Shown here one piece after another: positions 7,597-54,767 of a stretch of DNA of 64,000 nt. The position numbers were made by a program, and so were the translations under genes. Source of the DNA: a virus (lineage: Duplodnaviria > Caudoviricetes); IMG/VR virus record IMGVR_UViG_2596583697_000001, positions 1 to 64,000 of that record; one strand, 5' to 3'. The stretch's first letter is position 1. Every line of letters begins with the position of its first letter. The notes beneath the pieces were generated by a model. The model did not search any database. It saw nothing but the letters and a program-made list of their open reading frames with translations, and had not been told where the DNA came from.

Positions 7597-10500
7597 CTAT
7601 TTTATAAATTTAGATTTTGATTGTCTAATTGCAGTTGCAACTGAATCGAACATTTCTTTCATAGCATCATCGGTATCTCTCACATTCGGGAACGATAAAT
7701 CTCCATATTGAAGATTCACAACAAAAGGTTCTGACCGAGTAGATGTATTCATATTAGCTAATGTCTTGCTGTAATCTGGAATATTTGGTTTAAAACTATA
7801 AGCAGACGCTAAGTTTTTAAGTAGATTATTTTGCTGTTCCTCATTGAATACGGCTTCACCCATATGTAATACAGCTGGAAGTTCGTCTGGATCAAGTTTC
7901 TTAAGCCCAAGAAGCTTCATAGATGCTTCTCTATCAGAATCAGAAGATGAGCCTACTAATCCTCTTGTAATACCGTCTTTACGACTTGTTGCTAATTTAA
8001 CTCCTGGGCCACTATTTACGTAGTCGCCCTTTCCGGGAGTTCCGGGGCTTCCGTCTTTACCTCCTCCATATCTGGTGTTATCATTATCACGATCTCGCTC
8101 ATAATCATAACTGTCTTCTAAATTATCCCTGACTTCTTTTAGCACATCAAGCATTGAAGACACATTGTCGGTAAGTTGCTGCCAACTAGAAGTATATTCA
8201 GATATCATTCCTGAGTTCTTATTATACTGTTCTAGAGACTTTAACAGTTCAGTGGCAGTATCTTTCAACCCACTCTGAATACCCGTCAGAATCGCATCTG
8301 CGTTAGCTGTGGTGTTGTTTGTTGTGCCTAAGTGATCAAAAATGTTCTGTAAATTATCAGTAGCAGACATTTTCTGATTAAGCTGAGAGAGAAGACCATT
8401 GATACCTTTTACGGCTTCAGCATAGGTTATTTCACCTGCCTTATAGGAAGCTATATAATCCTCTAATAAGGACTGAATGTTATTTGTTGAGTCTATCTGA
8501 TCCTGATACTTTTTGAGCTGTTCAGCAGTATTAACGTACATTCCTGAGAACGTATTAAATAGGGCAGTATCGTTACCTGAGAGGACTTTATCTTTCCAGC
8601 CGGCACCGAGAATTTCGTCAGCCTTTGCTTCATTTTGTCCTTGTACAATCTTTTCATTAATTTCAGACCACTTGTCACTGATTTTCTGTAACGCATCGAT
8701 CTGATCTTGGAGGCCATCGTTATATAAATCTAAGGATTCCTGCGCTTTATCTATCTGTTCCTGAAGATTGTACTTTTCTAAATTGTACTGTGAATCGAGA
8801 AGAGCTTGTTGCGCATCTCTTTCAGCCTGTGCGTCTTTTTCGTAATCGACGATTCCATCACGGACAACTTTGTTTGTCTTCTGATTTCTGGCACGCTCAA
8901 GATCATACTGTTTTTGCTCTAAGTCAAATAGAAGCTTACGCTCCTCATTGCTTTTTTCCAGAAGTTTTAACTTTTCCTTTAGAGCATCTATTTCAGCCGT
9001 CTTTTGCTCGTTAACAGCATCCTTCTGTTCATTGAGTAAGTCAATTTGATCCTTAATAGCTCCCGTTACAGCAGATATAACCTGATCCTGTTCACTCTGT
9101 ACTTTACTTAGTCCTTCAGCAACCTTTTGTAATTCAGAAGAGAAGTTGCCCATATTTTCAAGAGGCATTTTCAGCAATTCTTCATTGAATTTTCTGATGT
9201 TCTGAATTGCACTTGACATTTCGGAGTTTACCGATTGCAACTGTTTGTATAAATCATTCCAGTTATCGGAGCCAACCGTGTAATTATCCATAACGTCTTT
9301 TATCAGAGAACTTTGTTTCTGAAGCTGTCCAACTACGGTTGCCCCATTTGAAATTAAACTCTGATAATAATTAGCGTCTAATTTCCCTCCAGAAGCTACA
9401 ACATCATCGCCCCAGCCCCGAATAGCTGCCCCAATATCCTGATACATCGAAACAAGAATAGAAGCATTTTCAATTGGCATTTGGAGTAATTTGTTGTTAA
9501 ATTCTTCCTGTTCAAGCTTCAGCCCTTGTATTTCATTCTTTGCAGCCCTTACTTTTGCCTTTAATTCTTTATAATATTTTGAATTTGTATCAAAATTTAC
9601 GGCACGAAGGTCGGCCATTTCAGATTCCCATTCAGCAATATTTTGTTGGTTGCCAGAAATCAAACCCCTATTATTATTTATCTGCCGTTTGTAGAAATCT
9701 GCATCAACAATCTTTCCACGCGCTTCCATCAATTCCATTTGAGATTTGATTATTTTATTGGACTGTTGAAGTTTTTCGTTCTCAATATCGATTGAGGCAA
9801 CTCTATTTTCATGTAAATCTCGAATAGTTTGAATCTGTTTTTCTCTTCCATCTTCTAGCTGTTCTTCAGATTTTTTCAGTCTATCATTAGCATCTATTGC
9901 TGCTTGAACTTTTTCGGCCAAATCACTAGGTAAAGATTCAATATCTACTCCACCATTCTCAATTTTGTCCTTATATCCAGATGGAATAGCCTTTAAAGCG
10001 TCTTCATATGCCTTTGAATATGCTTCGACTTCTCGTTGATATTGCGGAAGCAATGTTTCAGTTTGCATTTTTAGCATACTTTGCAACGCATTTTCTTTTG
10101 ATGCACTAGGCGCACCAGATTGAATCATTGTGTATAATTCGCCCAAACTTAATCCCGCTTTATCAGCATAACTTTGTAACTGAGATAGGCCATCTATTGT
10201 GTTGCCAAGGCCATTATCGAAAATTGATTTTGCTTTATCAAATTCTTCTTGTGTCAATCCAAGGTATGCAATTGTATCTTTATTGGCTAATTCTTCTAAT
10301 TTTGCATACTCATCTTGCAGTACTTTAGTTCCACGAGCGATCCAATCAATAGGCTTTTCGGTGTCTTTTTTATCTTTTTTAGAGCCAGATTTTGACCCAA
10401 CAGAGCCTATTCCGCCAAAGTCAGGAGTTTCAACCTGTATACTAGCAGCTTCGTTCAATTTATTAATAATCTGGTTATACTTGTTGGCTTGCTTAGTAGC

Positions 10501-12963
10501 GGCAGTCCATGCTTCTTGTTGTTCTTGACTAACAGCCATACCATGGGAACTAGCACGACTTAAATCCATTCCATCAAGACTAGCCAGTCCAGAAACAGAG
10601 TCAAATACGATATTATAATACTTAGACCATGCAGAGGATAAACTTTGAATTAACTTCTGGTCAATTTCAGCTTTAGCTTGTGCCATGGTTTTCCAATTCT
10701 CAACATCTAAACCATAGGCTTTACTTAAATCATCAAACAGTGATTGATTATTATTAACAATCGTACTGAAAAAGTCTTCATTTCCTGACAACTTATAGGC
10801 CATTGCAGACCTAAATGCAATAGCGTCATTATCGTAGGCAGTCTGAAGCTGAGTCATCATATCTTCGGCACTAATCAAACCGTTTACATACTCATTAACC
10901 GCTGTACGTAATTGGGGGTACTGTTTGACAATTGATTCAAGTGATGAAAGTCCGATTAATCCTGTCTTTTTGTATTGTTCACCAACATTCTTTAGAAGAT
11001 CATATGCGCCTTGCATGTTAGAAATTAAATCTGTAGACAGGGTATACCCATCGGCATAATCTTTAAGCGCTTTTGCTGCATCTTTAGCACTCATACCAGT
11101 TTCAGACATTAGCTTCTTCAATTCAGAGAATGATGCAATTGTCTCTTCATCGATTTTGCCAGATTTAACGAGTAACACATATTCCTCTATTTTGTCGATT
11201 GGGAGATTCTCAAACGCAGCAGAGAAGCTTGGTTTCTCATCCCCTTTTCCCTGTTCAAGATACAATTTTTCCGCTTCAGCCGCACTGCCAGCAGCCTGTG
11301 CAACTTCCAACCATGCATCAATTTCTTCCTGTGTGTTGATTGAATTTTCTTTAAAGAATTTGGTTGGATCATAACCATCAAACTTTGCCGTTGTGGTCTT
11401 AATGGCATTTTCGTACTTTGTTGCAAGATCATCAGCATCTACAGATAATTTCAGACGTAAACTGTTTGCATCGGCATCTGAGATATTCAATTGAGAAATA
11501 ACGTTATCTAAAATTTCTTTGTACTGATTTACATAATCGGTGACATTCAGATCTTTGGCATCTAAGGCGAACAAACTGTTGATTGCAGATTTTACATTTT
11601 CATCAGAAGATACACCTTCCACCATATCTACTATAGAAGACTTCACTTTTATAGCGTTATTTTCCAAATCGTAGGCGTTAAATCCATTTCTAATGTATTC
11701 GCTAATAAAGGATTTCTGAGAATTTGTTAAAGTATCATATCCACTTACCAATTGTGGTATTTTCTGTAGATACTCATCAATATAGCCAGAATCAATAGAA
11801 GCAAGTTCAGCATTTAAGGTCTGCCATTCCTGAACATATAGTTTAAGGTTTTTAGCCTGGTCAGAGGTAGGATCAATATTTGCCTTTGCAAGTATTTCGT
11901 CCATATGTTTTGAGAAAGTATCAATATTCCTCTGCAAATATCCCTCTATGTCTAAATCCATATCTTCATCTGAAACATTGAAACCGAGTGTTTTCAACCA
12001 GTCACTCTTACCGTTCATCTTCTCAAATGGGCGAGAATTTGTATAATCGAAAAATGCCTTTACTGTTTCATCATTAAATAACTTCGCAGCCTCTGCGCCG
12101 AAACGGGAAGCCTGGCCCGATACAGTCTCCAAGTCAAATGAACCAAACTGTCCAATAACATCAGTTCCCATAAGTTCATTGCGTTTTGCAATTGCACCCT
12201 CTCCAATGGTTTTTAAATTACTGGAAGAGGCAGACTTTTCTAATTCTAATTGACGTTCTCTTTCCAAAAGCTCAATGGTATCTGACAATGCACTATTCTT
12301 ATCAATAATCGCCTGATTCTCTGCATCGTATCCTTTTACTAAAGCAGGATTTATGGCTATTAAATCCTTGATAAGTCCGTTGTATTCCTCCATCTGCTCC
12401 TTAGTAAGTGAAACGTTATTTCCATAATCATCTACGCCTTTCGATAATTCTGCAAATCTATCGCTTAAAGAGTCTAATGTACTTTGATGTTCGTTAATCG
12501 TCGAAATGCTGGATTCAAGAGTTGACTTTAATTCACTTGCCTTACTAATTGCTATTTCATTACTGCGGATATAATTGTCTATTGCTTTCGCAGTTAATTC
12601 AATTCCTTTGAAAACAGCAAACATAATTGCTGCATTCAATGCCATATTAAAAGCTTTGGCTCCAAGCGCGGCAAAGTTAAAAGCCTTGCCCGTTTTATTT
12701 ACAACATCTGGGTACTGTTTAAATGCTTCAAGTGATTTGTCGGTTTGATTCGCATCGTTGAGGAATTTGGTTAAGGTTTCATCAGCAACGCCGGTATTCT
12801 TAATAAATGGCTCCCATCCGTCTGTGGTATATTCTTTTAATACGTCCGGAGATAGATTCCCAATTTTGCTAAAAGTTTCATTTACTTCATCGCTTATTTT
12901 TATTGCCTTTGTTTTGAAGGCATCTAAAAAGCTAAATCCATTTTCACTGCTATAATTTGCGAG
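7597..12963 (-). CDS. Tape measure protein, exon 2
   Basis: Long coiled-coil ORF; frame stays open >100 codons upstream of the track ATG (12645) with no start or RBS: LANYSSENGFSFLDAFK...AKAFNM. Confidence 0.85.
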   Translation of the reverse strand, partial: LANYSSENGFSFLDAFKTKAIKISDEVNETFSKIGNLSPDVLKEYTTDGWEPFIKNTGVADETLTKFLNDANQTDKSLEAFKQYPDVVNKTGKAFNFAALGAKAFNMALNAAIMFAVFKGIELTAKAIDNYIRSNEIAISKASELKSTLESSISTINEHQSTLDSLSDRFAELSKGVDDYGNNVSLTKEQMEEYNGLIKDLIAINPALVKGYDAENQAIIDKNSALSDTIELLERERQLELEKSASSSNLKTIGEGAIAKRNELMGTDVIGQFGSFDLETVSGQASRFGAEAAKLFNDETVKAFFDYTNSRPFEKMNGKSDWLKTLGFNVSDEDMDLDIEGYLQRNIDTFSKHMDEILAKANIDPTSDQAKNLKLYVQEWQTLNAELASIDSGYIDEYLQKIPQLVSGYDTLTNSQKSFISEYIRNGFNAYDLENNAIKVKSSIVDMVEGVSSDENVKSAINSLFALDAKDLNVTDYVNQYKEILDNVISQLNISDADANSLRLKLSVDADDLATKYENAIKTTTAKFDGYDPTKFFKENSINTQEEIDAWLEVAQAAGSAAEAEKLYLEQGKGDEKPSFSAAFENLPIDKIEEYVLLVKSGKIDEETIASFSELKKLMSETGMSAKDAAKALKDYADGYTLSTDLISNMQGAYDLLKNVGEQYKKTGLIGLSSLESIVKQYPQLRTAVNEYVNGLISAEDMMTQLQTAYDNDAIAFRSAMAYKLSGNEDFFSTIVNNNQSLFDDLSKAYGLDVENWKTMAQAKAEIDQKLIQSLSSAWSKYYNIVFDSVSGLASLDGMDLSRASSHGMAVSQEQQEAWTAATKQANKYNQIINKLNEAASIQVETPDFGGIGSVGSKSGSKKDKKDTEKPIDWIARGTKVLQDEYAKLEELANKDTIAYLGLTQEEFDKAKSIFDNGLGNTIDGLSQLQSYADKAGLSLGELYTMIQSGAPSASKENALQSMLKMQTETLLPQYQREVEAYSKAYEDALKAIPSGYKDKIENGGVDIESLPSDLAEKVQAAIDANDRLKKSEEQLEDGREKQIQTIRDLHENRVASIDIENEKLQQSNKIIKSQMELMEARGKIVDADFYKRQINNNRGLISGNQQNIAEWESEMADLRAVNFDTNSKYYKELKAKVRAAKNEIQGLKLEQEEFNNKLLQMPIENASILVSMYQDIGAAIRGWGDDVVASGGKLDANYYQSLISNGATVVGQLQKQSSLIKDVMDNYTVGSDNWNDLYKQLQSVNSEMSSAIQNIRKFNEELLKMPLENMGNFSSELQKVAEGLSKVQSEQDQVISAVTGAIKDQIDLLNEQKDAVNEQKTAEIDALKEKLKLLEKSNEERKLLFDLEQKQYDLERARNQKTNKVVRDGIVDYEKDAQAERDAQQALLDSQYNLEKYNLQEQIDKAQESLDLYNDGLQDQIDALQKISDKWSEINEKIVQGQNEAKADEILGAGWKDKVLSGNDTALFNTFSGMYVNTAEQLKKYQDQIDSTNNIQSLLEDYIASYKAGEITYAEAVKGINGLLSQLNQKMSATDNLQNIFDHLGTTNNTTANADAILTGIQSGLKDTATELLKSLEQYNKNSGMISEYTSSWQQLTDNVSSMLDVLKEVRDNLEDSYDYERDRDNDNTRYGGGKDGSPGTPGKGDYVNSGPGVKLATSRKDGITRGLVGSSSDSDREASMKLLGLKKLDPDELPAVLHMGEAVFNEEQQNNLLKNLASAYSFKPNIPDYSKTLANMNTSTRSEPFVVNLQYGDLSFPNVRDTDDAMKEMFDSVATAIRQSKSKFIK

Positions 12964-13001
12964 CGTATTACAGAAAAATGGAATAAATAATATACAGTTA
13001 C

Positions 13002-13030
13002 TTGCAATAATTATATATTAATGTTAAAAT
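13002..13030 (+). promoter_or_regulatory. sigmaA promoter for the Zn-ribbon cargo gene
   Basis: TTGCAA-17bp-TAAAAT with extended TG. Confidence 0.6.
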
Positions 13031-13060
13031 TCAGGTAAAAATCTGATTAGAGGGAATCGT

Positions 13061-13573
13061 ATGGGAAAGCCTATATATTTTTGCGAACATTGTGAAAAAA
13101 CAAATGAGAATAACCGTGAGTTAGTGTCTGCTGGATTTCTTCCAGAAAGACTTGATTTTAAAAGAGGTTACATTTATGGAGACTTGTGCAATAACGATTT
13201 CTCCATCTGTCCTTACTGTGGTGGTGAGTTATTAAAAGCCGACATAACAGAAGAGGATTACATTTTGCTCGGAAAAGCTACCAACAATAACCGTAAACTC
13301 CTCGATGCCATGGTCGAACTCCATAAGAAAGATATCATAGAGTATGAACTGAAAATGTCTCAATTCAGAAATCAGTATGAACAGGGGCAACAGGCTCAGA
13401 AGCAGGAGAGTAGTAGTAATAGCAACATACCTAAATGTCCGTACTGCAATTCAACCGATTTAAAGAAAATCTCTGGTTTCTCAAAGGCAGGAAGCGTTGC
13501 GCTCTTTGGAATATTCTCCGTTGGTAAAGTTAGCAAGCAATGGCATTGCAATAGTTGTAAGAGCGATTTTTGA
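13061..13573 (+). CDS. Zn-ribbon membrane-associated protein (intron cargo, antisense)
   Basis: CEHC, CPYC, KCPYCNST...WHCNSC; hydrophobic SVALFGIFSVG segment. Confidence 0.85.
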   Translation: MGKPIYFCEHCEKTNENNRELVSAGFLPERLDFKRGYIYGDLCNNDFSICPYCGGELLKADITEEDYILLGKATNNNRKLLDAMVELHKKDIIEYELKMSQFRNQYEQGQQAQKQESSSNSNIPKCPYCNSTDLKKISGFSKAGSVALFGIFSVGKVSKQWHCNSCKSDF

Positions 13574-13578
13574 GTATT

Positions 13579-13616
13579 AAAAAAAAGTAGGAGATTATTC
13601 CTACTCTTTTTTATTT
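13579..13616. terminator. Bidirectional intrinsic terminator inside the intron
   Basis: A-tract, AGTAGGA/TCCTACT stem, T-tract. Confidence 0.75.
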
Positions 13617-13719
13617 AACGATTAAAAATAGCCAGTCCATTGACTGACTCTATAGATGAATGAATAAAATATAACCTATGACATTTAAATCGAGCAAAAT
13701 CGACATAAACTAACCAAAG

Positions 13720-13800
13720 ATCAATAATAAAGGAACTAGAATATTCTAGTTCCTTTAAAAATATGCCCTTGAACCACGTAGGTTACCAAGGTACTATCAA
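13720..13800 (-). ncRNA. Candidate AbiF RNA antitoxin (type III TA-like)
   Basis: Tandem promoters upstream; hairpin CCUUG-GU-AACC-UACGU-GGUU-CAAGG; ends in a 30-bp perfect palindrome (13728-13757). Confidence 0.65.
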
Positions 13801-13804
13801 CTAT

Positions 13805-13870
13805 ATTATATGTTGATTAAAAAAATTTAGTCAACGTATTTAGTATAAACCAATAATTTGTTTTTGTCAA
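13805..13870 (-). promoter_or_regulatory. Two tandem sigmaA promoters driving the small RNA
   Basis: TTGACA-17-TATACT (13870-13842) and TTGACT-18-TATAAT (13834-13805), no ORF downstream. Confidence 0.75.
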
Positions 13871-13882
13871 TCAGTTATTTTT

Positions 13883-14803
13883 TTATTGTAAAGGACCTAA
13901 ACTTCTCCAGTTACTTGGAAGTCCCATCATATTTCGAATCTTTTTAATAGGAATAGTGGTCAATTTCGATGATAACTCACTATACAATAAATCTATTTGA
14001 TCAAAATACGACATATATCTTTTATTCGGAAACACTAATTTAAAAGCTACCATCACTGAAAAATAATCATTTGTATTTTTAGTTTTATTAAAATATTTAA
14101 AGTAATTATTATTACTAAGGTACGAATAAGATGAGTATGAATATAACAATTCATCATGCGCACATCGATTTCTAATTGTAGAAAGAAAAAATAGACAATT
14201 AGCTAATTGATGATCTCTAATTCCCCACTTAACTCTTTTTGCGATATCATCTTGATTATGCTGTAGCATATTTGAATAAAATTTACTAATGTCACCCATG
14301 GAAATAGCATTCACTAAAACCCATAAAGGTATGTAGTTTTTTCCGTTAACGTAATGCGAAATTGATAAATCATTTTTAATATTTAATGTGATTTTTTTAT
14401 ATAAATTACTTAACAGCTTACAAGTTTGTTCATATTTTTTTGTTCCTCTAATATCAAAATTTTCCATGTTAAGATAATTTTTATAACCATATTCTTTTGA
14501 AAATTCAAAAGCAACAAGTGACTTAACTTGCTTTTCAAATTCTAATATGTATTCTAAAGTTATCAATCTTAAATTTCTATCAAATTCGTACAAAGCATAG
14601 ATTTCCTCTAACCGAGTTCCAGAAAGATACTTTTCATAAGGTGTAGCTGTTTGAAGAAAAGGCTCTTTGTACCCGTTTATTAGATTATAATAGTTCGTTT
14701 TAATAATAATCTGTTTAGCTCTTTTCTTATTTTTAATAATAATTCCACGACTTTTTAATATTCCAATTTGAGTCCGAGTATCCCTAAATACTTTTTCCTC
14801 CAT
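13883..14803 (-). CDS. Abi family (AbiD/AbiF, Abi_2) HEPN ribonuclease (intron cargo)
   Basis: QIGILKSRGI, NYYNLINGYK, LYEFDRNLR, HY...IPLWV motifs; HEPN RNRCAH (RxxxxH); lower GC than flanks. Confidence 0.9.
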   Translation of the reverse strand: MEEKVFRDTRTQIGILKSRGIIIKNKKRAKQIIIKTNYYNLINGYKEPFLQTATPYEKYLSGTRLEEIYALYEFDRNLRLITLEYILEFEKQVKSLVAFEFSKEYGYKNYLNMENFDIRGTKKYEQTCKLLSNLYKKITLNIKNDLSISHYVNGKNYIPLWVLVNAISMGDISKFYSNMLQHNQDDIAKRVKWGIRDHQLANCLFFLSTIRNRCAHDELLYSYSSYSYLSNNNYFKYFNKTKNTNDYFSVMVAFKLVFPNKRYMSYFDQIDLLYSELSSKLTTIPIKKIRNMMGLPSNWRSLGPLQ

Positions 14804-14868
14804 ACTCCCATTCCCCTATCATAAGTAATGCTTCCAATTATATACCATAATTTTCCATATTTCTACAA

Positions 14869-14880
14869 GAACGTAGGTTC
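14869..14880. promoter_or_regulatory. Possible LexA/DinR (Cheo) box next to the abi promoter
   Basis: GAAC-GTAG-GTTC. Confidence 0.4.
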
Positions 14881-15311
14881 TTATTTAGGGGGTGTATTTT
14901 TTGATACATTAACTATTATACGTTTGCAAGCCGTATAAAAATCTGGGAGTATCTACCCAACTATTTTTGGTACATCGCATAGCTACGATTGACTTTTTAT
15001 TATTGTCATCTGACAACCTGGCCTGACTCTACCTTCATGAAATATAATATTCCATGTTCCCTGGGAGTCGATGGGGGCAACACTTATCATAAATTAATAT
15101 GACAGACCGTTTCCCTGCTGATTAGCCATTTTCATGGCGATTCCAGTCTCAAAACCACGCAGTCACGCATGGTCATATAAGGAATTTTTCTAAAGCCCTC
15201 TTGTTTATGTGAACATACATAAACTCGTTCCCGTTTTACCTATGGCTTTTAACCATAGCAGTAGCGACTTCTTGAGCCTCGCAGCCAATTGTACCTACAA
15301 CGATTTCGCTG

Positions 15312-16871
15312 ACCCAAGCTTTTTGCACCTAAAATCCCTCCTCCTATTGCACCGATTGTTCCTAAACTACTTAATGCTTTGACAATACTGTCTATGCTAT
15401 TAACGCCAACCGTTCCAAAATCAACAAAAAACTTTATTAAATCAGAATCGATTATAGTGTTTGACAATGATTGGAACGCGGCTTCGAATTGACCTAACTT
15501 TGCCACAATTGATTCTAACCATTTTTCATTTTCTTCATAAGCTGATCCAGCAGAGTTCATTGAAGCCTCTAATGCTTTTTGTACTTGTCCAGACTGAAAT
15601 GCCTGAATTACAGCCGCACCTTGATTGCCGCGCTGTTTCCCGAAAAGTGTTTCTAAAAGATCGGCACGTTTCGTCTGATCTAATGAATTAAATACCTTAG
15701 AAACACCTTCAAGAATTTCGTAATAATCTTTGAATTTCGATGGATCTGCGTCGTTCATAATATTAACCTGGCCTTTTGTCAGATTAAGAATATGAGTTTG
15801 TATTTTACTAACTGATTCAAGCCCTTCTGCTTCTTCGCCAAGTTCTTCTAAAGCGCCTTTCATGCCCATTACACGCATTTGACCGACTTTTAAAGCGTTG
15901 CCTAATTCTCCAGCATTTTGAGTGATTTCAGATCCACCAGTTAAAAGCGCTAGTGATTTGTTAATATCCATTCCACCAAGAGCCAGTGCAGAGGCAGCAT
16001 TTCTTAATCCTTCACCGAGCGATCCTGCATCTGTCGCAAATTCGTTTCCAAGTTTGTTTAGCGAGTCCACAATTGTAATACTTTTTGAACTTTCGATGTT
16101 AAAACTTTTCATTGCTGTTACGAGATCAGACACGGCAGTCTTATCATCAACTTCACCTACATTAGCGTAAATAGAAGAAATTTTAGCTAGTTGTTCTGCC
16201 TGGTCAATATTAAATCCAAGTTTTGCCCATGTCGCCGTTTGTTCCACTAAACTTGATACAGATCGTCCAAGTTCTTGTGCATTTTTATTGGCATTTACAA
16301 GAAACTGATTGTACTTGCTATCTGTCTCATCTGTAACCTTATAAAGATTTGTCATTGCCGTATCGAGTTTTACGACGTTTGAAATCATTTGTTTCACAGA
16401 CTGTACCACAGTCATTACAGCCCCAGCAGATACAATCCATTCAGAGAATTTACGTGCACTTGAAGCGAAAGTGTCGCCAACACTTTTACCAGTAACCCCT
16501 AAGGCGTCAGCTTCAGCCTTTACACCTCGAAATTTCTTTTGTAGATTACTAAAATCTGATTTATTGTCGATTTCTTTCAGTTTGATGAGTAGTCCGTCAA
16601 GTGTGCCACCAAAATCTTTTTCTGCTGCGGAATTAACTCTACGCCATGCTTGTACTTGATTGGCAAAAGTAATTTTATCTATCTCATTTAGATTATTTTT
16701 TACCTTTAACAATTGATTTGCGTATTTAGTCGCAGTTTTATCATCTACATCTACACCAAGTTTTAATTTATATTGTTCTTTTACCTGGGTAATTAATTTT
16801 GGTAATTGCTCATTCTTCAATTTCGATGAATCAATCATAGTTTGAAGAATAAGAGAAATATTATCAGCCAT
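15312..16871 (-). CDS. Tape measure protein, exon 1 (TP901-type/PhageMin_Tail core)
   Basis: LDTAMTNLYKVTD, WAKLGF, DSLNKLGNEFA, LFGKQRGN; the track ORF runs 20 non-TMP-like residues past ...GAKSLG into the intron. Confidence 0.9.
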
Positions 16872-16987: not shown

Positions 16988-18040
16988 TTAATCCATAAAT
17001 AACTCATCAGAATCTTCATCTTCATCATCTCTAATTACGTATATCTGCGTGGTTTGGCTCGATTCGTGTCCAAGCAAGGCTTGAGCTGCTTCAATATTCT
17101 TGCCTTCTTCAACAACTATACTTGTCGCACGTCCTTCTCTAAGAATATGCGGATGGAATCGTCTACCAATGATAGGAGAGAATACATCTGTACACCAATT
17201 ATTAAATGTGGTTTCGCCTACTTGATTAATGCCACCATTATATTTCGTGATAAACATATATGGGCAATCATCATCTCCACGTTCTTCTAACCATTTTTTA
17301 AATGCTTCCATGGAATAATCGGAGAATTTTAAACGTCTTATCTTACCAGTTTTTCCTTTACCTTTGCAACGGATCTTTGGGGTAAGATAGTATTTGATTT
17401 CTTTTTCTTCTTCAGTTCCATCTTCCAACTTTACCATTTTCTTTTTTACAATGGACTTTGAGGTGATTATATCTTTCAAAATCTGCATTGTTTCGGCTCT
17501 ACGACAACCAGTTTCCCATGTGAATTTTAAGTAAGCGATTTTTTGGTATTTATCTTTAACCTTACTTTCCTCTAACGTAGATATCAACATCTCCATTTCA
17601 GACTTAGTAGGAGGAGTCTTTTCTCTAACAAATGACTTTTCCGGTTTTTTAATTGACGAATTTATGAAATTTCGGAATGTAGGATATTCACTTTCATAAT
17701 AAACCATTATATAATTATTCAAACTACTAACGGCGGCGCGCTTGTTGGAAATATCAGCAGAAGAGTGCTCAAGAGTTATTAACCAATTTTGATATCTCTT
17801 GAAATCTAATCCTTTTATATCTGTCTGCTGTTTATTATTTAGATTTTCCATAACCCACCTAAACCATATCTTTAAAGAGCTGCGATAAGCCTTAATGGAT
17901 TTATCTGATAGTTCAATATTGTTGGCAAAGAAATCGTCATAAATAAACCTGTTAAACTCATTTACTTTACCCCATTCTTCATTTGTTACTTCTGGTATTT
18001 TTTTCATACAAAAATCACTACCTTTCATTTTTAAATACAA
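16988..18040 (-). CDS. Tyrosine recombinase (YomM-like, late region); likely start 18007
   Basis: TGCRRAE, KGKG, HPHILR, LLGH...TTQIY catalytic residues. Confidence 0.9.
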   Translation of the reverse strand: MYLKMKGSDFCMKKIPEVTNEEWGKVNEFNRFIYDDFFANNIELSDKSIKAYRSSLKIWFRWVMENLNNKQQTDIKGLDFKRYQNWLITLEHSSADISNKRAAVSSLNNYIMVYYESEYPTFRNFINSSIKKPEKSFVREKTPPTKSEMEMLISTLEESKVKDKYQKIAYLKFTWETGCRRAETMQILKDIITSKSIVKKKMVKLEDGTEEEKEIKYYLTPKIRCKGKGKTGKIRRLKFSDYSMEAFKKWLEERGDDDCPYMFITKYNGGINQVGETTFNNWCTDVFSPIIGRRFHPHILREGRATSIVVEEGKNIEAAQALLGHESSQTTQIYVIRDDEDEDSDELFMD

Positions 18041-38356: not shown

Positions 38357-39037
38357 TGAACAAATTTCTCCTTTAAATAATGAATTTTAATTGTCTAATT
38401 CTTCTTCGGTGGGATTTCACACCCTAAAATTGAATTTGTTTGAGCTGTCAGCTCAGTTCTTATTAATAATTTGGACTTACTCCAATTGTTAAATTCAAAC
38501 CGCTATTGTGCAGAGCGATGTACTTTTGACGAGTAATCACAACTCGTAGTTATCTCTATTAAAACAACATTTATTAATCGTATCTGTGAACGATGCACTC
38601 TGCTTGATTTAATATTTATACTGTTAGCCGGGAGGCGTATCCGACATCTCTTTAAGACCTTTTGAACGATAAGGCGTGATAGCTGCCCATTCTATCCTTA
38701 ACAGTATTTTTAATAACCGCATAAAACGGGTATTTTCTAAGTATTGGTTTAGGATTTTCCTTTCCGTTGGCATGGGCTTAAAGTCTCCATACCGACTTAT
38801 TTCGAGGAGGTGTCGTTAACCACTTACCGAGTGTAAGTCAATCAACGACTTTATGAGAATAAGTTGAATTATGAGCTATTCTTATGTATTTTTTGATTTT
38901 CTTTTCTCTCTTACCTAGGGCTCCCTTATAATTTTTCTTCGAAATTAATGGAAGTTTCCCATACCTCTTACGGAAGAGTTCCGCGAAAAAATGATAGGTT
39001 AAAATTGAAAAAAGTAACTTTTCATCTCAATAATGCC

Positions 39038-39340
39038 TTATCTACAAGCCTTTTGATACTTACATCCATTTTTAATTCTATTTTTAATTCCGGTTGCAAT
39101 TTTAAAAGTAGGATAAATACATTTTTCTAAATTTAATTCTGGATTTCCAAATAGATTTTTGCCCTGCATAGGTTTTCGTTCAACCAAAGTAAATCTTCCA
39201 AGCTTGGGAATTTCAACTTCTTCTCCGCAGATAAGTTTCTCTGCTGTCAAACTAGAAGAAGTATTAAAAACTTCTTCTACAGCATAATCAGATAACATGC
39301 ACCTCTTTGCAACTTCTTTCACAAATTCGCTTTTATTCAA
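39038..39340 (-). CDS. Divergent HU/IHF-like DNA-binding protein
   Basis: MNKSEFVKEVA...VEIPKLGRF..PTFKIA. Confidence 0.85.
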   Translation of the reverse strand: MNKSEFVKEVAKRCMLSDYAVEEVFNTSSSLTAEKLICGEEVEIPKLGRFTLVERKPMQGKNLFGNPELNLEKCIYPTFKIATGIKNRIKNGCKYQKACR

Positions 39341-42161
39341 ATAATTTACCTCCGTATCTTTTAAATTTTATATTAAAGATATCAATATCTCCCTCGTTTG
39401 ATTCTTCTATGTATGTGTTTGATGGTGTTAGTTCATACATTATTTCTGTCAAGACATCGTTCTCATAGTTAAATAGCGCATAAAATAATAACTTCGAAAT
39501 ATGTGAATATTTTTTCATGTCTACATATTCTATCAAGGATAGCATCGTATGTTTGTTAATTTTCAATTTACTGATATCGTATACTAATGATTCCCTGTAT
39601 CGATCAGTTAATAGAAACTTTTCAGATGGAGCATAGTATTCTTTCGACCATATAGCATTAATTGAAGAATTAGTAGACTCGCACATTTTCACAATTTTAT
39701 TGAGCTGTTTTTTGTTTACTGAATTTTGACTAAAATCACCAAACCTAAAACACGATGATAATGGAGTAAAATCACTTCCTTTTGTTTTATCCGATCGATA
39801 TCTATTAACTTCTCTTAATAAATAATCCATCGCTGTATGGTGATAGTTATATTTCTTCTTATCAGGGTTACGATATCCCTTGGTCTGAGCTATAAACCCT
39901 ATAAAAGCTGGTTTTATTGCTTTGTTATTAAATGTGCGTCTATCCCACTTGTCTTTTATCGTCTTAAGTTCTCTTACAGAAGAAATATCAAATTCCTTTT
40001 TCGCTTTATCAATTTCAATACACGATAATACGTTTAAAATACAAATATCGTGATAGATCCCTTCAATGTCTTTATAGCATTCGGCTAAAGATTTTCCGGA
40101 TCGATTTATGTAATCCCACATCAAAGTATTTAATTCCTGAGATAAATTGACTATCTCACCGATTTTGTTTTCGCTTGTTTTGTAATCCAAGTCCGCCTTA
40201 TCTGCATTTGTGTAGTGTCTTTGAGATTTCTTAGCGGAGACACGATTGGCTGGAACTTTGAAATACTCGTAGTTCTTTAATGCAGCGTCAATTAATATTT
40301 CATTGTCAGTTACTATCATTTGGTCTGAATCGAAGTCAGCTCCGCTTAATCGTTCTAAGATATTTTCTCCGATAGAGTTAATACAAACAATTTCATCTGT
40401 TAAATTAAAGTATTTATCAATTAGATCATGCTGCATGTTGGTTGATACCAAAATATTCGATGTTGATATATGTGGGCTACGGCAACCTAAGACTTTTTTA
40501 CCATACTTATATCGAGTAGTATGGATATGTCCAGATGGGAGAGAAGTAGTTCCGTCAAATTTCCCGATACTATGGAGTAACATTTCAAATGGATTTCCAA
40601 ATAATACAGAATAATTACCATCAATTAAAATGTGACCTTTTTTAATATTTTTCAAGTAAGCTTTGCATGTTTCCTTTTTAAAATCATAATAATATTTAGT
40701 GTCATAAAATGTATCTGAAAGATTCATCATCGTGTAAATAATATCATTTTTATCTTTAAATACATTGCTCAATTCTTCTCCATCGTCTACCGCACACTTA
40801 ACATGATATTTTAAAACATCACTATCTGTATTTAACAGATTTACATATTCAAGAGACGGCTTTAGCAACGTATGCACATCATCTGATGATAGCTGTAGTG
40901 TATTTAATAATTGGTAATGAGTTTGAACCATCCTGCCATCAAAGAAGTGTGTCTTTTTTTCATGTTTTACTATGCTAAATGTAGGGTCTATATTATTAAG
41001 CCATTGCTCGATAGGAGCAAATTTTATGTATTTTATGCTATTTGGAGTGGTAATAAGTTTTATATCACCAATATCTTTCGCAAGAGTAATATGATCTTTG
41101 TGAAGTTGCGAAATACTGGAGATGTTATTATCTTCAAACCATTTCTGTATATTTGTATTAAAACAGCATGATTTAAAAAATCTATTTCTCAAAAGAACCA
41201 TTCCATATTTTGAATAGTCACCAAGAAGACTGATGTCTATCAAAGATTGTCCATCAAATATTGAGTTGGATATCTCAGCAGTACCTTCTCGCACCGATAT
41301 CTTCTTTTCAGCGTCCATTTCTACGATAATAGAATCTTCAGAAAATGCACTATCGTAATCTGGGATTATTAATATATTTTTAGGATCTATCGTGAGTAAA
41401 TCTATAGCACTGCTGGTCGGCAATGAAATATAAGACTCGAAGGCTGCTAAATCAATCAAATCTCCCTCTTTAATATCAAGTCCACATAAATCCCATTCAT
41501 GAATGTCTGCGTATAATCTTTCGTCTACAAATAGACACTTTCCGACTCTCGATGATCCAGATGTCCTTTTTAAACGAATATAATGTGTGCCATTACAATT
41601 AAATCCACTTTTATATAGGTAATCTCTTAGTTCTTTTTTTGTATATGAGACTTGCACTGTTTTGACGGTATATACTTGATTTCCATACCTATCTTCTTCA
41701 AAATTAAAACCGTCTGGTAGCTCGAAACGGGTGATTTCTCTGGTGGGAGTGAGAGCTACAACTCCTACTATGACACCATCATCTAAGGCAATATTGTCTG
41801 TAAAATGAAGATCGTCAAGTAAGTATCCATCCATAACATATGTATTGGCTTTGACCTTATTAAAATCTTTGCTACTATACTTAAAAGTTACATTTATAAT
41901 TTTATCAGTAAATTCTTTCCCATTGTGTGTAAAAGTGAATGTATCGCTTTTATCGTAAATGCGACTTACAATCTCTCTTATTTTTTCACTATCAAGGCTA
42001 AAATCCAGTGAGTTAATAAACCGATTGAAATTCACATCGCCCTTCTTTGTCAATAATCTATAGCCTATTTTATTTTTCTTTTCGTCTAAAAAATTGTTTG
42101 CAAGGAACAAATCCTTCGCATCAACGCTTGGTATATAAATACAATTTCTTTTTGACTGCAA
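39333..42161 (-). CDS. yonO: YonO-like single-subunit (double-psi-barrel) RNA polymerase
   Basis: RSPH motif, catalytic LSGADFDSD, IGEIVNLSQ, IEIDKAKK; next to HU as in SPbeta. Confidence 0.85.
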   Translation of the reverse strand: MQSKRNCIYIPSVDAKDLFLANNFLDEKKNKIGYRLLTKKGDVNFNRFINSLDFSLDSEKIREIVSRIYDKSDTFTFTHNGKEFTDKIINVTFKYSSKDFNKVKANTYVMDGYLLDDLHFTDNIALDDGVIVGVVALTPTREITRFELPDGFNFEEDRYGNQVYTVKTVQVSYTKKELRDYLYKSGFNCNGTHYIRLKRTSGSSRVGKCLFVDERLYADIHEWDLCGLDIKEGDLIDLAAFESYISLPTSSAIDLLTIDPKNILIIPDYDSAFSEDSIIVEMDAEKKISVREGTAEISNSIFDGQSLIDISLLGDYSKYGMVLLRNRFFKSCCFNTNIQKWFEDNNISSISQLHKDHITLAKDIGDIKLITTPNSIKYIKFAPIEQWLNNIDPTFSIVKHEKKTHFFDGRMVQTHYQLLNTLQLSSDDVHTLLKPSLEYVNLLNTDSDVLKYHVKCAVDDGEELSNVFKDKNDIIYTMMNLSDTFYDTKYYYDFKKETCKAYLKNIKKGHILIDGNYSVLFGNPFEMLLHSIGKFDGTTSLPSGHIHTTRYKYGKKVLGCRSPHISTSNILVSTNMQHDLIDKYFNLTDEIVCINSIGENILERLSGADFDSDQMIVTDNEILIDAALKNYEYFKVPANRVSAKKSQRHYTNADKADLDYKTSENKIGEIVNLSQELNTLMWDYINRSGKSLAECYKDIEGIYHDICILNVLSCIEIDKAKKEFDISSVRELKTIKDKWDRRTFNNKAIKPAFIGFIAQTKGYRNPDKKKYNYHHTAMDYLLREVNRYRSDKTKGSDFTPLSSCFRFGDFSQNSVNKKQLNKIVKMCESTNSSINAIWSKEYYAPSEKFLLTDRYRESLVYDISKLKINKHTMLSLIEYVDMKKYSHISKLLFYALFNYENDVLTEIMYELTPSNTYIEESNEGDIDIFNIKFKRYGGKLFE

Positions 42162-54680: not shown

Positions 54681-54694
54681 TGTAAATAATATCA

Positions 54695-54767
54695 GCAGAG
54701 TGGAACGGCTTACATAGCCGTTTTAATGCACATGGCAAAGCCATACGGTCACAAGTCCGTAAGCATT
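54695..54767 (+). ncRNA. Twister ribozyme, circularly permuted
   Basis: GCA-GAGUG-[P1 GAACGGCU/AGCCGUUU]-UAA-UGC-AC-[P3 AUGGC/GCCAU]-[P4 ACGG-UCACAAGU-CCGU]; pseudoknots CAC/GUG and AC/GU. Confidence 0.7.

Follow-up and report, generated by a model that had tools for sequence, protein, structure and literature searches.

What is an abortive-infection gene doing inside the tape measure protein (TMP) gene of a prophage? The question arises in a 64-kb window at the start of the IMG/VR provirus record IMGVR_UViG_2596583697_000001 (114 kb in all), the host phage being an SPbeta-like Lachnospiraceae prophage. In this window the minus-strand TMP gene is interrupted by an insert in which we find only two open reading frames (ORFs) of at least 55 residues: one for an Abi_2-family protein, AbiD, and one, antisense to the TMP gene, for a double Zn-ribbon protein. 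We are highly confident that the insert (15311..12964) is a group I intron with splice sites at these boundaries, and we consider it probable that a fuller explanation holds in its entirety: the loop of the intron is a slot from which accessory genes such as abiD can be expressed.

That the interrupted gene encodes a TMP is indicated by its great length, by its position in a tail module (tail, portal and terminase genes lie around it) and by a PhageMin_Tail domain (PF10145, E = 7e-22) in exon 1; furthermore, tblastn matches fall on annotated TMPs, SPbeta yomI among them. By TMP similarity the closest isolates are SPbeta-type Bacillus phages, Brevibacillus phage Sundance and Enterocloster phages, and the closest genomes are those of Lachnospiraceae (e.g., Lacrimispora, Acetatifactor, Eisenbergiella and Kineothrix); exon 1 is 56–87% identical to exon 1 of related prophage TMPs. 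The first-pass annotation of this DNA had described the gene as split into a 520-codon exon and a start-less frame that together specify 2,308 residues, and the translations confirm both the places of the split and the sum (520 + 1,788). The first 106 codons of exon 2 contain no start codon. Because exon 2 is 79% identical to that of locus L009 starting at residue 1 (L numbers designate the loci compared), and because the ratio of nonsynonymous to synonymous substitution (dN/dS) is 0.17–0.21 across these start-less codons, equal to that of exon 1, we judge exon 2 to be coding from its first codon.

What kind of insert is this? The first-pass annotation had read the landmarks of a group I ribozyme just inside exon 1 (P3, P5 with a GAAA loop, Q, P7, P8 and S), and all of these elements are present (Table 1). 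The core region folds better than 100 of 100 shuffled sequences (z = -3.46). A comparison with the Rfam group I model RF00028, in which all candidates were scored, aligns 15231-15004 (minus strand) with model positions 1-253, that is, the whole model end to end, with E-values of 1.9e-4 per genome and 0.0026 on 371 nt. The covariance-model check that had been proposed for this region is thus marginal in its outcome: the alignment spans the full model, but its 21.1 bits lie below the gathering score of 50. The alignment needs a long insertion at the hairpins between P3 and P4, which may be why the score is low. The insert DNA gave no match among GenBank phages.

More decisive evidence comes from relatives, which we sought with exon 1 and then with a degenerate pattern spanning P7-P3'-P8-P7'. 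The pattern matched 3 viral and 43 metagenomic loci. With L009, L013 and the window added, there are 49 sources, 39 of which contain TMP introns. The 5' splice site was located in 33 of the 39 (32 by script, L058 by hand), with the same P1/P10 layout, while six are cut by a contig end, yet retain the Zn-ribbon ORF or exon 2. The ten sources without TMP or Zn-ribbon similarity (L021, L023, L026, L027, L031, L032, L037, L043, L052 and L060) may be chance matches. The intron family is widespread, at one conserved TMP site, and this site is shared by TMPs that are only 23–55% identical to each other, some of them only 23–30% identical to exon 1 of the window. It is also optional, since the TMPs of L004 and L005 (2,139 and 2,517 residues) run uninterrupted across the homologous site.

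For the analysis of covariation, 24 distinct cores were aligned and the helices were fixed from the window coordinates. Paired cells amount to 80.2% in the 24 sequences, compared with 32–45% when the 3' partners are slid by 1–3 columns; as the helices had been taken from the window, this control is biased in their favour, but the compensatory counts are independent of that derivation. Both sides have changed in 61 of 97 pairs, whereas shuffles average 39.8 and reached 61 in none of 500 trials, and the covariation score is 0.329 versus 0.06–0.12 after sliding. The conserved group I core (P3-P8, with the P3/P7 pseudoknot and the P4-P6 domain) is thus present, and its covariation can be followed helix by helix: pairs changed on both sides number 3/7 in P1, 5/6 in P2a, 4/6 in P3, 5/7 in the hairpin after P3, 4/4 in P4, 4/7 in P6 and 7/7 in P8, and all five in a 5-bp pairing of the P1 loop with the stretch after P9a. 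P7 is 100% paired and contains one compensatory pair, A-U in 17 of the 24 sequences and C-G in the other seven. The first-pass annotation had argued from just such a change in P7 that the ribozyme is maintained by selection; both the change and the argument are borne out by these homologues.

How are the ends of the intron specified? A single guide holds the P10 and P1 strands side by side: nucleotides 15283-15278 pair with the first six of exon 2 (12963-12958; P10, 6 bp), and 15277-15271 pair with the last seven of exon 1 (P1), with a U15312.G15277 wobble at the splice site. This U.G pair is found in all 22 aligned sequences that have letters there. P10 pairings of 5–7 bp occur in 17 relatives, chosen by a script that selected for P10. 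In several loci the exon ends differ and the guides match accordingly; in L036 both P1 and P10 are wholly different and both fit that locus's own exons. As expected of a terminal omega-G, G12964 is the last intron nucleotide, directly before the first exon-2 codon, and in L009, L013, L020 and L040 the 3' site coincides with the start of exon-2 protein similarity. (The script's 3' splice sites for L018 and L051 are doubtful and were left out of the counts.) The splice sites that had been named for the window are therefore upheld: P1 and P10 match its exons, and the layout recurs in relatives.

The 3' splice site lies far from the core, and a long-range helix appears to close the distance. Using RNAduplex, we compared the stretch after P9 with the last 75 nt of each intron, and obtained a helix of 8–11 bp in 12 of 13 introns (it is absent from L018) whose 3' strand ends 14–36 nt before the 3' splice site. 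Introns of the window type have G-C as its central pair and those of the L013 type have C-G, a compensatory difference. Because this helix closes it, the DNA between the two strands, 1.9 kb in the window, is a peripheral loop, which is the usual way in which group I introns carry ORFs. A local hairpin at 14936-14918 was considered for the same region; it pairs poorly across the family (45.8%) and was replaced by the long-range helix.

Which of the two loop genes is cargo? The first-pass annotation had counted both as defence cargo, an assignment that does not hold for the Zn-ribbon gene. Its protein has 435 relatives at E <= 0.001, none of them named. When this protein rather than the ribozyme served as the query, 37 viral loci on 35 contigs were obtained, and in 30 of the 37 the gene is antisense to, and no more than about 350 nt from, a long TMP exon-2 frame; five of the other seven have one more sense ORF between, one is unclear and one is truncated. 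Bearing in mind that the gene is present even in minimal introns of about 1 kb that have no other cargo, such as L013, we conclude that it is the conserved ORF of the intron family itself, and that only the AbiD unit is variable cargo in the window copy.

The family as a whole shows the same division. Both ends could be assigned in 17 introns: 13 of these measure 978–1,230 nt and contain the Zn-ribbon ORF only (e.g., L013 2865-3863), and four are larger, namely those of the window, L009 (2,955 nt), L040 (2,760 nt) and L036 (2,097 nt). Two more, L007 (at least 5.7 kb) and L028, are loaded with cargo and cut by contig ends. In every one of the larger introns the core is on one side of the extra DNA and the Zn-ribbon ORF on the other, and a conserved core with variable cargo, the pattern that related prophages had been predicted to display, is indeed seen across the relatives (cargo identities are listed in Table 1). 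The cargo of the window, of L078 and of L002, L003 and L008, which have the second core type, is located within the bounds of the intron. Another telling comparison is with L040, which is 96–98% identical to the window in exon 1 yet has different cargo, and whose exon 2 is 96% identical to that of L009. To judge from these alignments, the TMP alleles are mosaic and the intron marks a recombination breakpoint. That the variable genes lie between conserved flanks suggests that cassettes are exchanged by recombination.

Related TMP genes show further discontinuities. Exon 1 is split by another insert of 1–2 kb at other positions in L040 (exon-1 residues 255/256), L016 (336/337), L070 (324/325) and L098 (275/276), so that several introns or inserts may reside in one TMP gene. 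We also noted other Lachnospiraceae TMP homologues that stop at the same K-N-x-G site (L010 11221, L012 2804, L015 2859, L014 3642, L011 11305 and L016 13773). Different sequences follow these stops, with a Zn-ribbon ORF downstream in L010, L015 and L016, and two of the contigs end there; further intron types may be present at this site.

We now turn to the cargo of the window copy. The first-pass annotation had proposed an AbiF-like HEPN nuclease, and the gene product is consistent with that prediction: it matches Abi_2 (PF07751; E = 1e-41, 143.6 bits against a cut-off of 25.6), AbiD in PADLOC (E = 9.9e-51 over residues 1-301, so that the family match is full-length) and phrog_2158 (E = 8e-62), and its translation contains an R-x4-H HEPN motif. 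Among the loci compared, abiD is present in the window only. Its position is unusual: in 81 GenBank phage records with Abi_2, the matches listed lie mostly no more than a few kilobases from a record end and not in tail genes.

Does this gene have signals of its own? A promoter-like element with consensus hexamers at 14865-14837 stands at the head of the cargo loop, as it does in six other loci, L003, with the second core type described below, included. By blastn the element is 93% identical in L028, 84% in L003, 94% in L007 and 95% in L076, and in L040/L046 it is 100% identical over 40 nt. At the opposite end of the cargo, the flank 13610-13436, which comprises the terminator-like hairpin and the Zn-ribbon side, is 89% identical to L003. 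A scan at the level of consensus returned 17 promoter-like sites where 13.2 are expected and 4 terminator-like sites where 1.1 are expected. The loop genes had each been credited with a promoter and terminator of their own; the signals found are matches at the level of consensus only. Directly after the abiD stop codon there is a candidate short RNA, both of whose promoter-like sites match 11 of 12 hexamer positions. It has no match in Rfam, and is possibly the partner of the HEPN protein.

Table 1. Features of the TMP intron in the window and corresponding features in related loci (positions without a locus number are those of the window).
Feature	Locus and position	Strand	Remarks
TMP exon 1	16871..15312	minus	520 codons, ending GAKSLG; last nucleotide U15312
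TMP exon 2	12963..7597	minus	1,788 codons, beginning LANYSS; first ATG at 12645
Group I intron	15311..12964	minus	2,348 nt; terminal G12964
Ribozyme core, P1 loop to P9 hairpins	15311..14918	minus	from 24-sequence alignment; about 390 nt at intron 5' end
Internal guide	15283..15271	minus	P10 and P1 strands side by side
P3	15184-15179 with 15062-15057	minus	read in sequence
Extra hairpin between P3 and P4	15172-15155	minus	from alignment
P5 with GAAA loop	15138-15125	minus	read in sequence
Q stretch	15123-15114	minus	read in sequence
P7	15069-15065 with 15029-15025	minus	read in sequence
S stretch	15034-15023	minus	read in sequence; P8 also present
Long-range helix, 5' strand	14931-14924	minus	RNAduplex, -10.8 to -11.6 kcal/mol
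Long-range helix, 3' strand	13007-13000	minus	about 35 nt before 3' splice site
Promoter-like element, head of cargo loop	14884..14837	minus	common to other cargo-bearing introns
AbiD/Abi_2 gene (HEPN-type abortive infection)	14803..13883	minus	306 residues; variable cargo of window copy
Candidate short RNA after abiD	13870..13725	minus	two promoter-like sites; 13-bp hairpin 13757-13728
Hairpin between convergent abiD and Zn-ribbon genes	13605..13586	plus	terminator-like on this strand
Double Zn-ribbon ORF	13061..13573	plus	antisense to TMP; 170 residues
Second conserved structured RNA	L002 7401-7900; L003 7561-7998; L008 11569-12007		about 470 nt; same TMP site
Cargo: AbiD	window		PADLOC, E 1e-50
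Cargo: NsnA/GmrSD_N-like	L078		PADLOC, E 1e-40; within intron bounds
Cargo: MazE/MazF-like	L036		weak PHROG matches
Cargo: PBECR3 RNase, helix-turn-helix (HTH) protein, Bro/ANT antirepressor	L003		second core type
Cargo: choline-binding repeat protein	L002		second core type
Cargo: YbjQ-domain protein	L008		second core type
Cargo: DUF3800	L070
Candidate cargo: PemK-like, ArdC-like, Bro/ANT	L082, L065, L088 (respectively)		exon 1 outside these loci

The same TMP site is occupied in L002, L003 and L008 by a second conserved structured RNA, which is 96% identical between L002 and L003 and 86.5% identical to both in L008. A U precedes its first nucleotide and a G is its last. The guide forms pairs with each of the two exons and covaries at one position with exon position -2, and the copies keep the same 3' Zn-ribbon ORF. 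RF00028, run on four viral relatives, found nothing in L002 or L003 and gave only a 14-bit match elsewhere in the L004 record; all Rfam families compared with L002 7385-7960 gave matches at chance level only. An attempt to place group I helices by eye and with RNAalifold led to no assignment: only P1, P10 and the U/G boundaries are clear. This second core could represent a divergent group I intron, or an element of another kind.

The first-pass annotation had proposed that the ribozyme makes a silent landing pad for anti-phage genes. In a similar vein, we hypothesize that these features describe two expression states of one locus. During lytic growth, the late operon would be transcribed through the whole element; the guide would pair with the end of exon 1, forming P1 with its U.G pair at U15312, and with the start of exon 2, forming P10; guanosine would attack after U15312, and the exons would be joined after G12964 to give an mRNA for the 2,308-residue TMP. 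During lysogeny the late operon would be silent and the loop genes would be transcribed from promoters of their own: abiD on the sense strand, after the promoter element that is common to intron copies, and the Zn-ribbon gene in antisense. Since the loop would be spliced out of the late message and its genes would be expressed independently of it, the loop would allow accessory (moron) genes to be expressed at no cost to the TMP. In the window, this slot would hold an abortive-infection gene that protects the lysogen against other phages, and cargo would probably be exchanged by recombination between the promoter element and the Zn-ribbon gene.

A different proposal starts from the Zn-ribbon protein: the element may be an ordinary mobile intron whose Zn-ribbon ORF is a new kind of homing or DNA-targeting factor, with AbiD as a mere passenger. 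The intron would then possess a mobility gene after all, and homing directed by the protein would account for the conserved site. This proposal deserves attention, because the ORF sits where homing endonuclease genes usually sit, for which reason the first-pass statement that the intron carries defence genes 'instead of a homing endonuclease' must be considered unproven. The ORF occurs in nearly every family member, in the usual intron-ORF loop, and both core types at the site keep it; TMPs only 23–30% identical to the window's exon 1 are occupied at the one site; and the exon mosaicism breaks at the intron, as would result from co-conversion following a double-strand break. The protein itself, on the other hand, offers no hallmark of a nuclease. 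An alignment of 36 sequences has Met1, seven Cys and one Pro as its sole invariant columns, and thus no invariant His, Asp, Glu or Lys; Pfam shows no nuclease domain; and neither intron ORF was matched to the LAGLIDADG, GIY-YIG, HNH, His-Cys box, PD-(D/E)xK or EDxHD classes, one of them matching Abi_2 and the other Zn ribbons only. Nor does either match a transposase family at cut-off (Zn_ribbon_IS1595 is sub-threshold, E = 0.0016). An AlphaFold model (pLDDT 83.5, with low confidence in a hydrophobic stretch, 140-156, of the C-terminal ribbon) has no match in the PDB by Foldseek (best E 1.0), and a wide VIA search gave a best Z of 4.8, below the noise level; both tests are weak for distant folds. 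A search of the ESM Atlas yielded only unnamed clusters, and PADLOC and PHROGs returned nothing meaningful. Moreover, the gene is antisense, and its C-terminal ribbon, which encloses the hydrophobic stretch and in L007 is fused to other cargo proteins, is more reminiscent of an anchoring or assembly module. We therefore regard a homing factor as rather unlikely; the ORF may have a role in intron mobility, but we cannot call it a homing endonuclease.

The ribbon module has a distribution of its own. It ends two to four tandem genes in L007 (6439-9233), L071, L039, L058 and L049; in L007 there are three paralogues of 240–256 residues with a ribbon tail, one with a weak zincin-like match. The C-terminal ribbon seems to be a portable tail that is fused to varied heads.

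Alternatively, the loop genes might serve the intron or the phage, acting in splicing, tail assembly or the regulation of lysogeny, and AbiD might be an addiction-type toxin that stabilises the intron. The HTH regulators and Bro/ANT antirepressors among the relatives' cargo fit such functions, the toxin domains of the MazF/PemK-like and PBECR3 types might work as addiction modules, and a candidate short RNA directly after abiD recalls the arrangement of toxin-antitoxin pairs. We consider this improbable: the cargo is too varied (a choline-binding protein, ArdC, an NsnA/GmrSD-like protein, or nothing at all), 13 of the 17 complete introns manage without cargo, and PADLOC lists both AbiD and NsnA among proteins of anti-phage defence.

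Several observations weigh against our preferred explanation, that of a splicing intron with a cargo slot. The gathering threshold of RF00028 is not reached, and with default filters neither the whole window nor a 3.6-kb portion matched a group I family in Rfam; Rfam in E-value mode on four relatives together (48 kb) also found nothing relevant, for which the filters are probably the cause. It is atypical for a core to have one or two hairpins between P3 and P4, and such hairpins are not known from described group I subgroups. The terminal G and P10 in relatives are not independent tests, because the script required both. Within the intron, the sense strand has terminator-like hairpins (13757-13728 and 13649-13630) at which late transcription could stop before the 3' splice site. 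In this respect, a 942-residue ORF at 39333..42161 (minus strand) matches phrog_8308 over its full length and, weakly, 'RNA-dependent RNA polymerase' entries of Enterocloster phages and also an SPbeta-type phage; it probably encodes a YonO-type single-chain RNA polymerase for the late genes. SPbeta YonO is reported to pause little and to transcribe the late operon as a single unit (PMC5467207). That the corresponding enzyme would read through the hairpins is conjecture, because what is described there is processivity, not the passage of terminators. As to the cargo, the defence role predicted for AbiD is a family label, and many cargo proteins in relatives matched no family. The spread of the intron to one site in TMPs 23–55% identical is unexplained, because it has no recognisable homing endonuclease. 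Finally, the provirus record is rated 69% complete, and the phage may therefore be defective.

Three of these doubts (the sub-threshold RF00028 score, the sense-strand hairpins and the completeness rating) could also be taken to mean that the ribozyme is a relic, with the TMP split by a gene island into two polypeptides or the prophage defective and without tails, but to this we give very little credence: every family-consensus helix can form in the window copy, P1 and P10 fit that copy's own exons, the 106 start-less codons are under purifying selection, the exons are open over 520 and 1,788 codons, and the same architecture recurs in 39 loci.

With which known systems does a splicing intron of this kind compare? 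Group I introns in TMP genes are already published: prophage TMP genes of the Bacillus cereus group host TMP-IVS1, IVS2, IVS3a and IVS3b, which belong to IA1/IA2, some having remnants of endonuclease genes and some not, and different introns share one TMP site through identical P1/P10 (PMC2504315). Compared by description only, the elements are alike in being of the self-splicing group I type in a prophage TMP gene (splicing being presumed for ours), with two core types at one site here, in having copies that lack a complete homing endonuclease gene, and in an unexplained spread between unrelated prophages. They differ in the accessory or defence cargo and conserved antisense ORF described here, and in hosts that are Lachnospiraceae, not Bacillus.

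In IStrons such as CdISt1 of Clostridioides difficile, a group I ribozyme lies 5' and a long non-endonuclease payload 3' (PMC3984707, PMC4227781). Our element resembles them in its order of parts, with the ribozyme first and a 3' splice site kilobases from the core, in an insertion that splicing would render harmless, and in its Clostridia hosts. The IStron payload, however, is an IS605-family transposon (TnpA/TnpB) that moves the element, whereas no transposase domain is found here; the payload here varies, has its own promoter-like signals and includes an antisense gene, and the element occupies one fixed site in one gene. Phage introns of the T4 sunY type have an ORF looped out 3' of the core, and carry sense-strand homing endonuclease genes. 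The order of core, ORF loop and short 3' segment is the same in our element, as is the recruitment of a remote 3' splice site by pairing; in contrast, the conserved ORF here is antisense and not a recognisable nuclease, and extra genes have been added. The AbiD unit, for its part, would resemble prophage morons, such as the Abi_2 genes beside the integrase of streptococcal prophages, which encode an abortive-infection protein of the same Pfam family: both would be stand-alone units of promoter, gene and terminator, expressed in a silent prophage. Unlike the usual moron, which lies between genes, its slot is inside the coding sequence of an essential structural gene, where it would be tolerated only by virtue of RNA splicing.

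We found no published account of an intron loop that holds accessory or defence genes on their own promoters, nor of a conserved antisense intron ORF, in literature searches that lacked most subscription journals. Group I introns are seen as selfish, their only passengers being homing endonucleases or, in IStrons, transposases. If our explanation is correct, it adds a third lifestyle, that of a neutral docking site inside an essential gene, and with it a new kind of hotspot for defence genes and morons, one which annotation pipelines would miss because they call a 'split' TMP. The payload differs between near-identical introns and includes recognised anti-phage genes, and the Zn-ribbon family gains a precise genomic context for its unnamed members. 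Ribozymes that naturally bridge foreign DNA of between 1 and more than 5 kb in splicing would also be at hand, which is of practical interest for engineered introns; in addition, a second, unclassified RNA is flagged at the same TMP site. Whether the idea can be generalized, such that the TMP intron loop of large Clostridia prophages is an exchangeable slot for lysogen-protecting or counter-defence genes (AbiD, NsnA/GmrSD-like proteins, RNase toxins, ArdC and antirepressors), framed by a shared promoter and a new non-nuclease Zn-ribbon family, and with the second RNA at the site perhaps a divergent or new class of splicing ribozyme, is a matter on which we place the chances at about even.

Elsewhere in the window, a 350-residue tyrosine recombinase/integrase is encoded at 16988-18040 (minus strand; phrog_1, E = 3e-36), immediately before TMP exon 1; an integrase is not expected within a tail module, and this one may mark another mobile insert. 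Two matches reach the Rfam gathering level: a skipping-rope RNA at 38619-38706 (63 bits) and a type-P5 twister ribozyme at 54694-54760 (52 bits).

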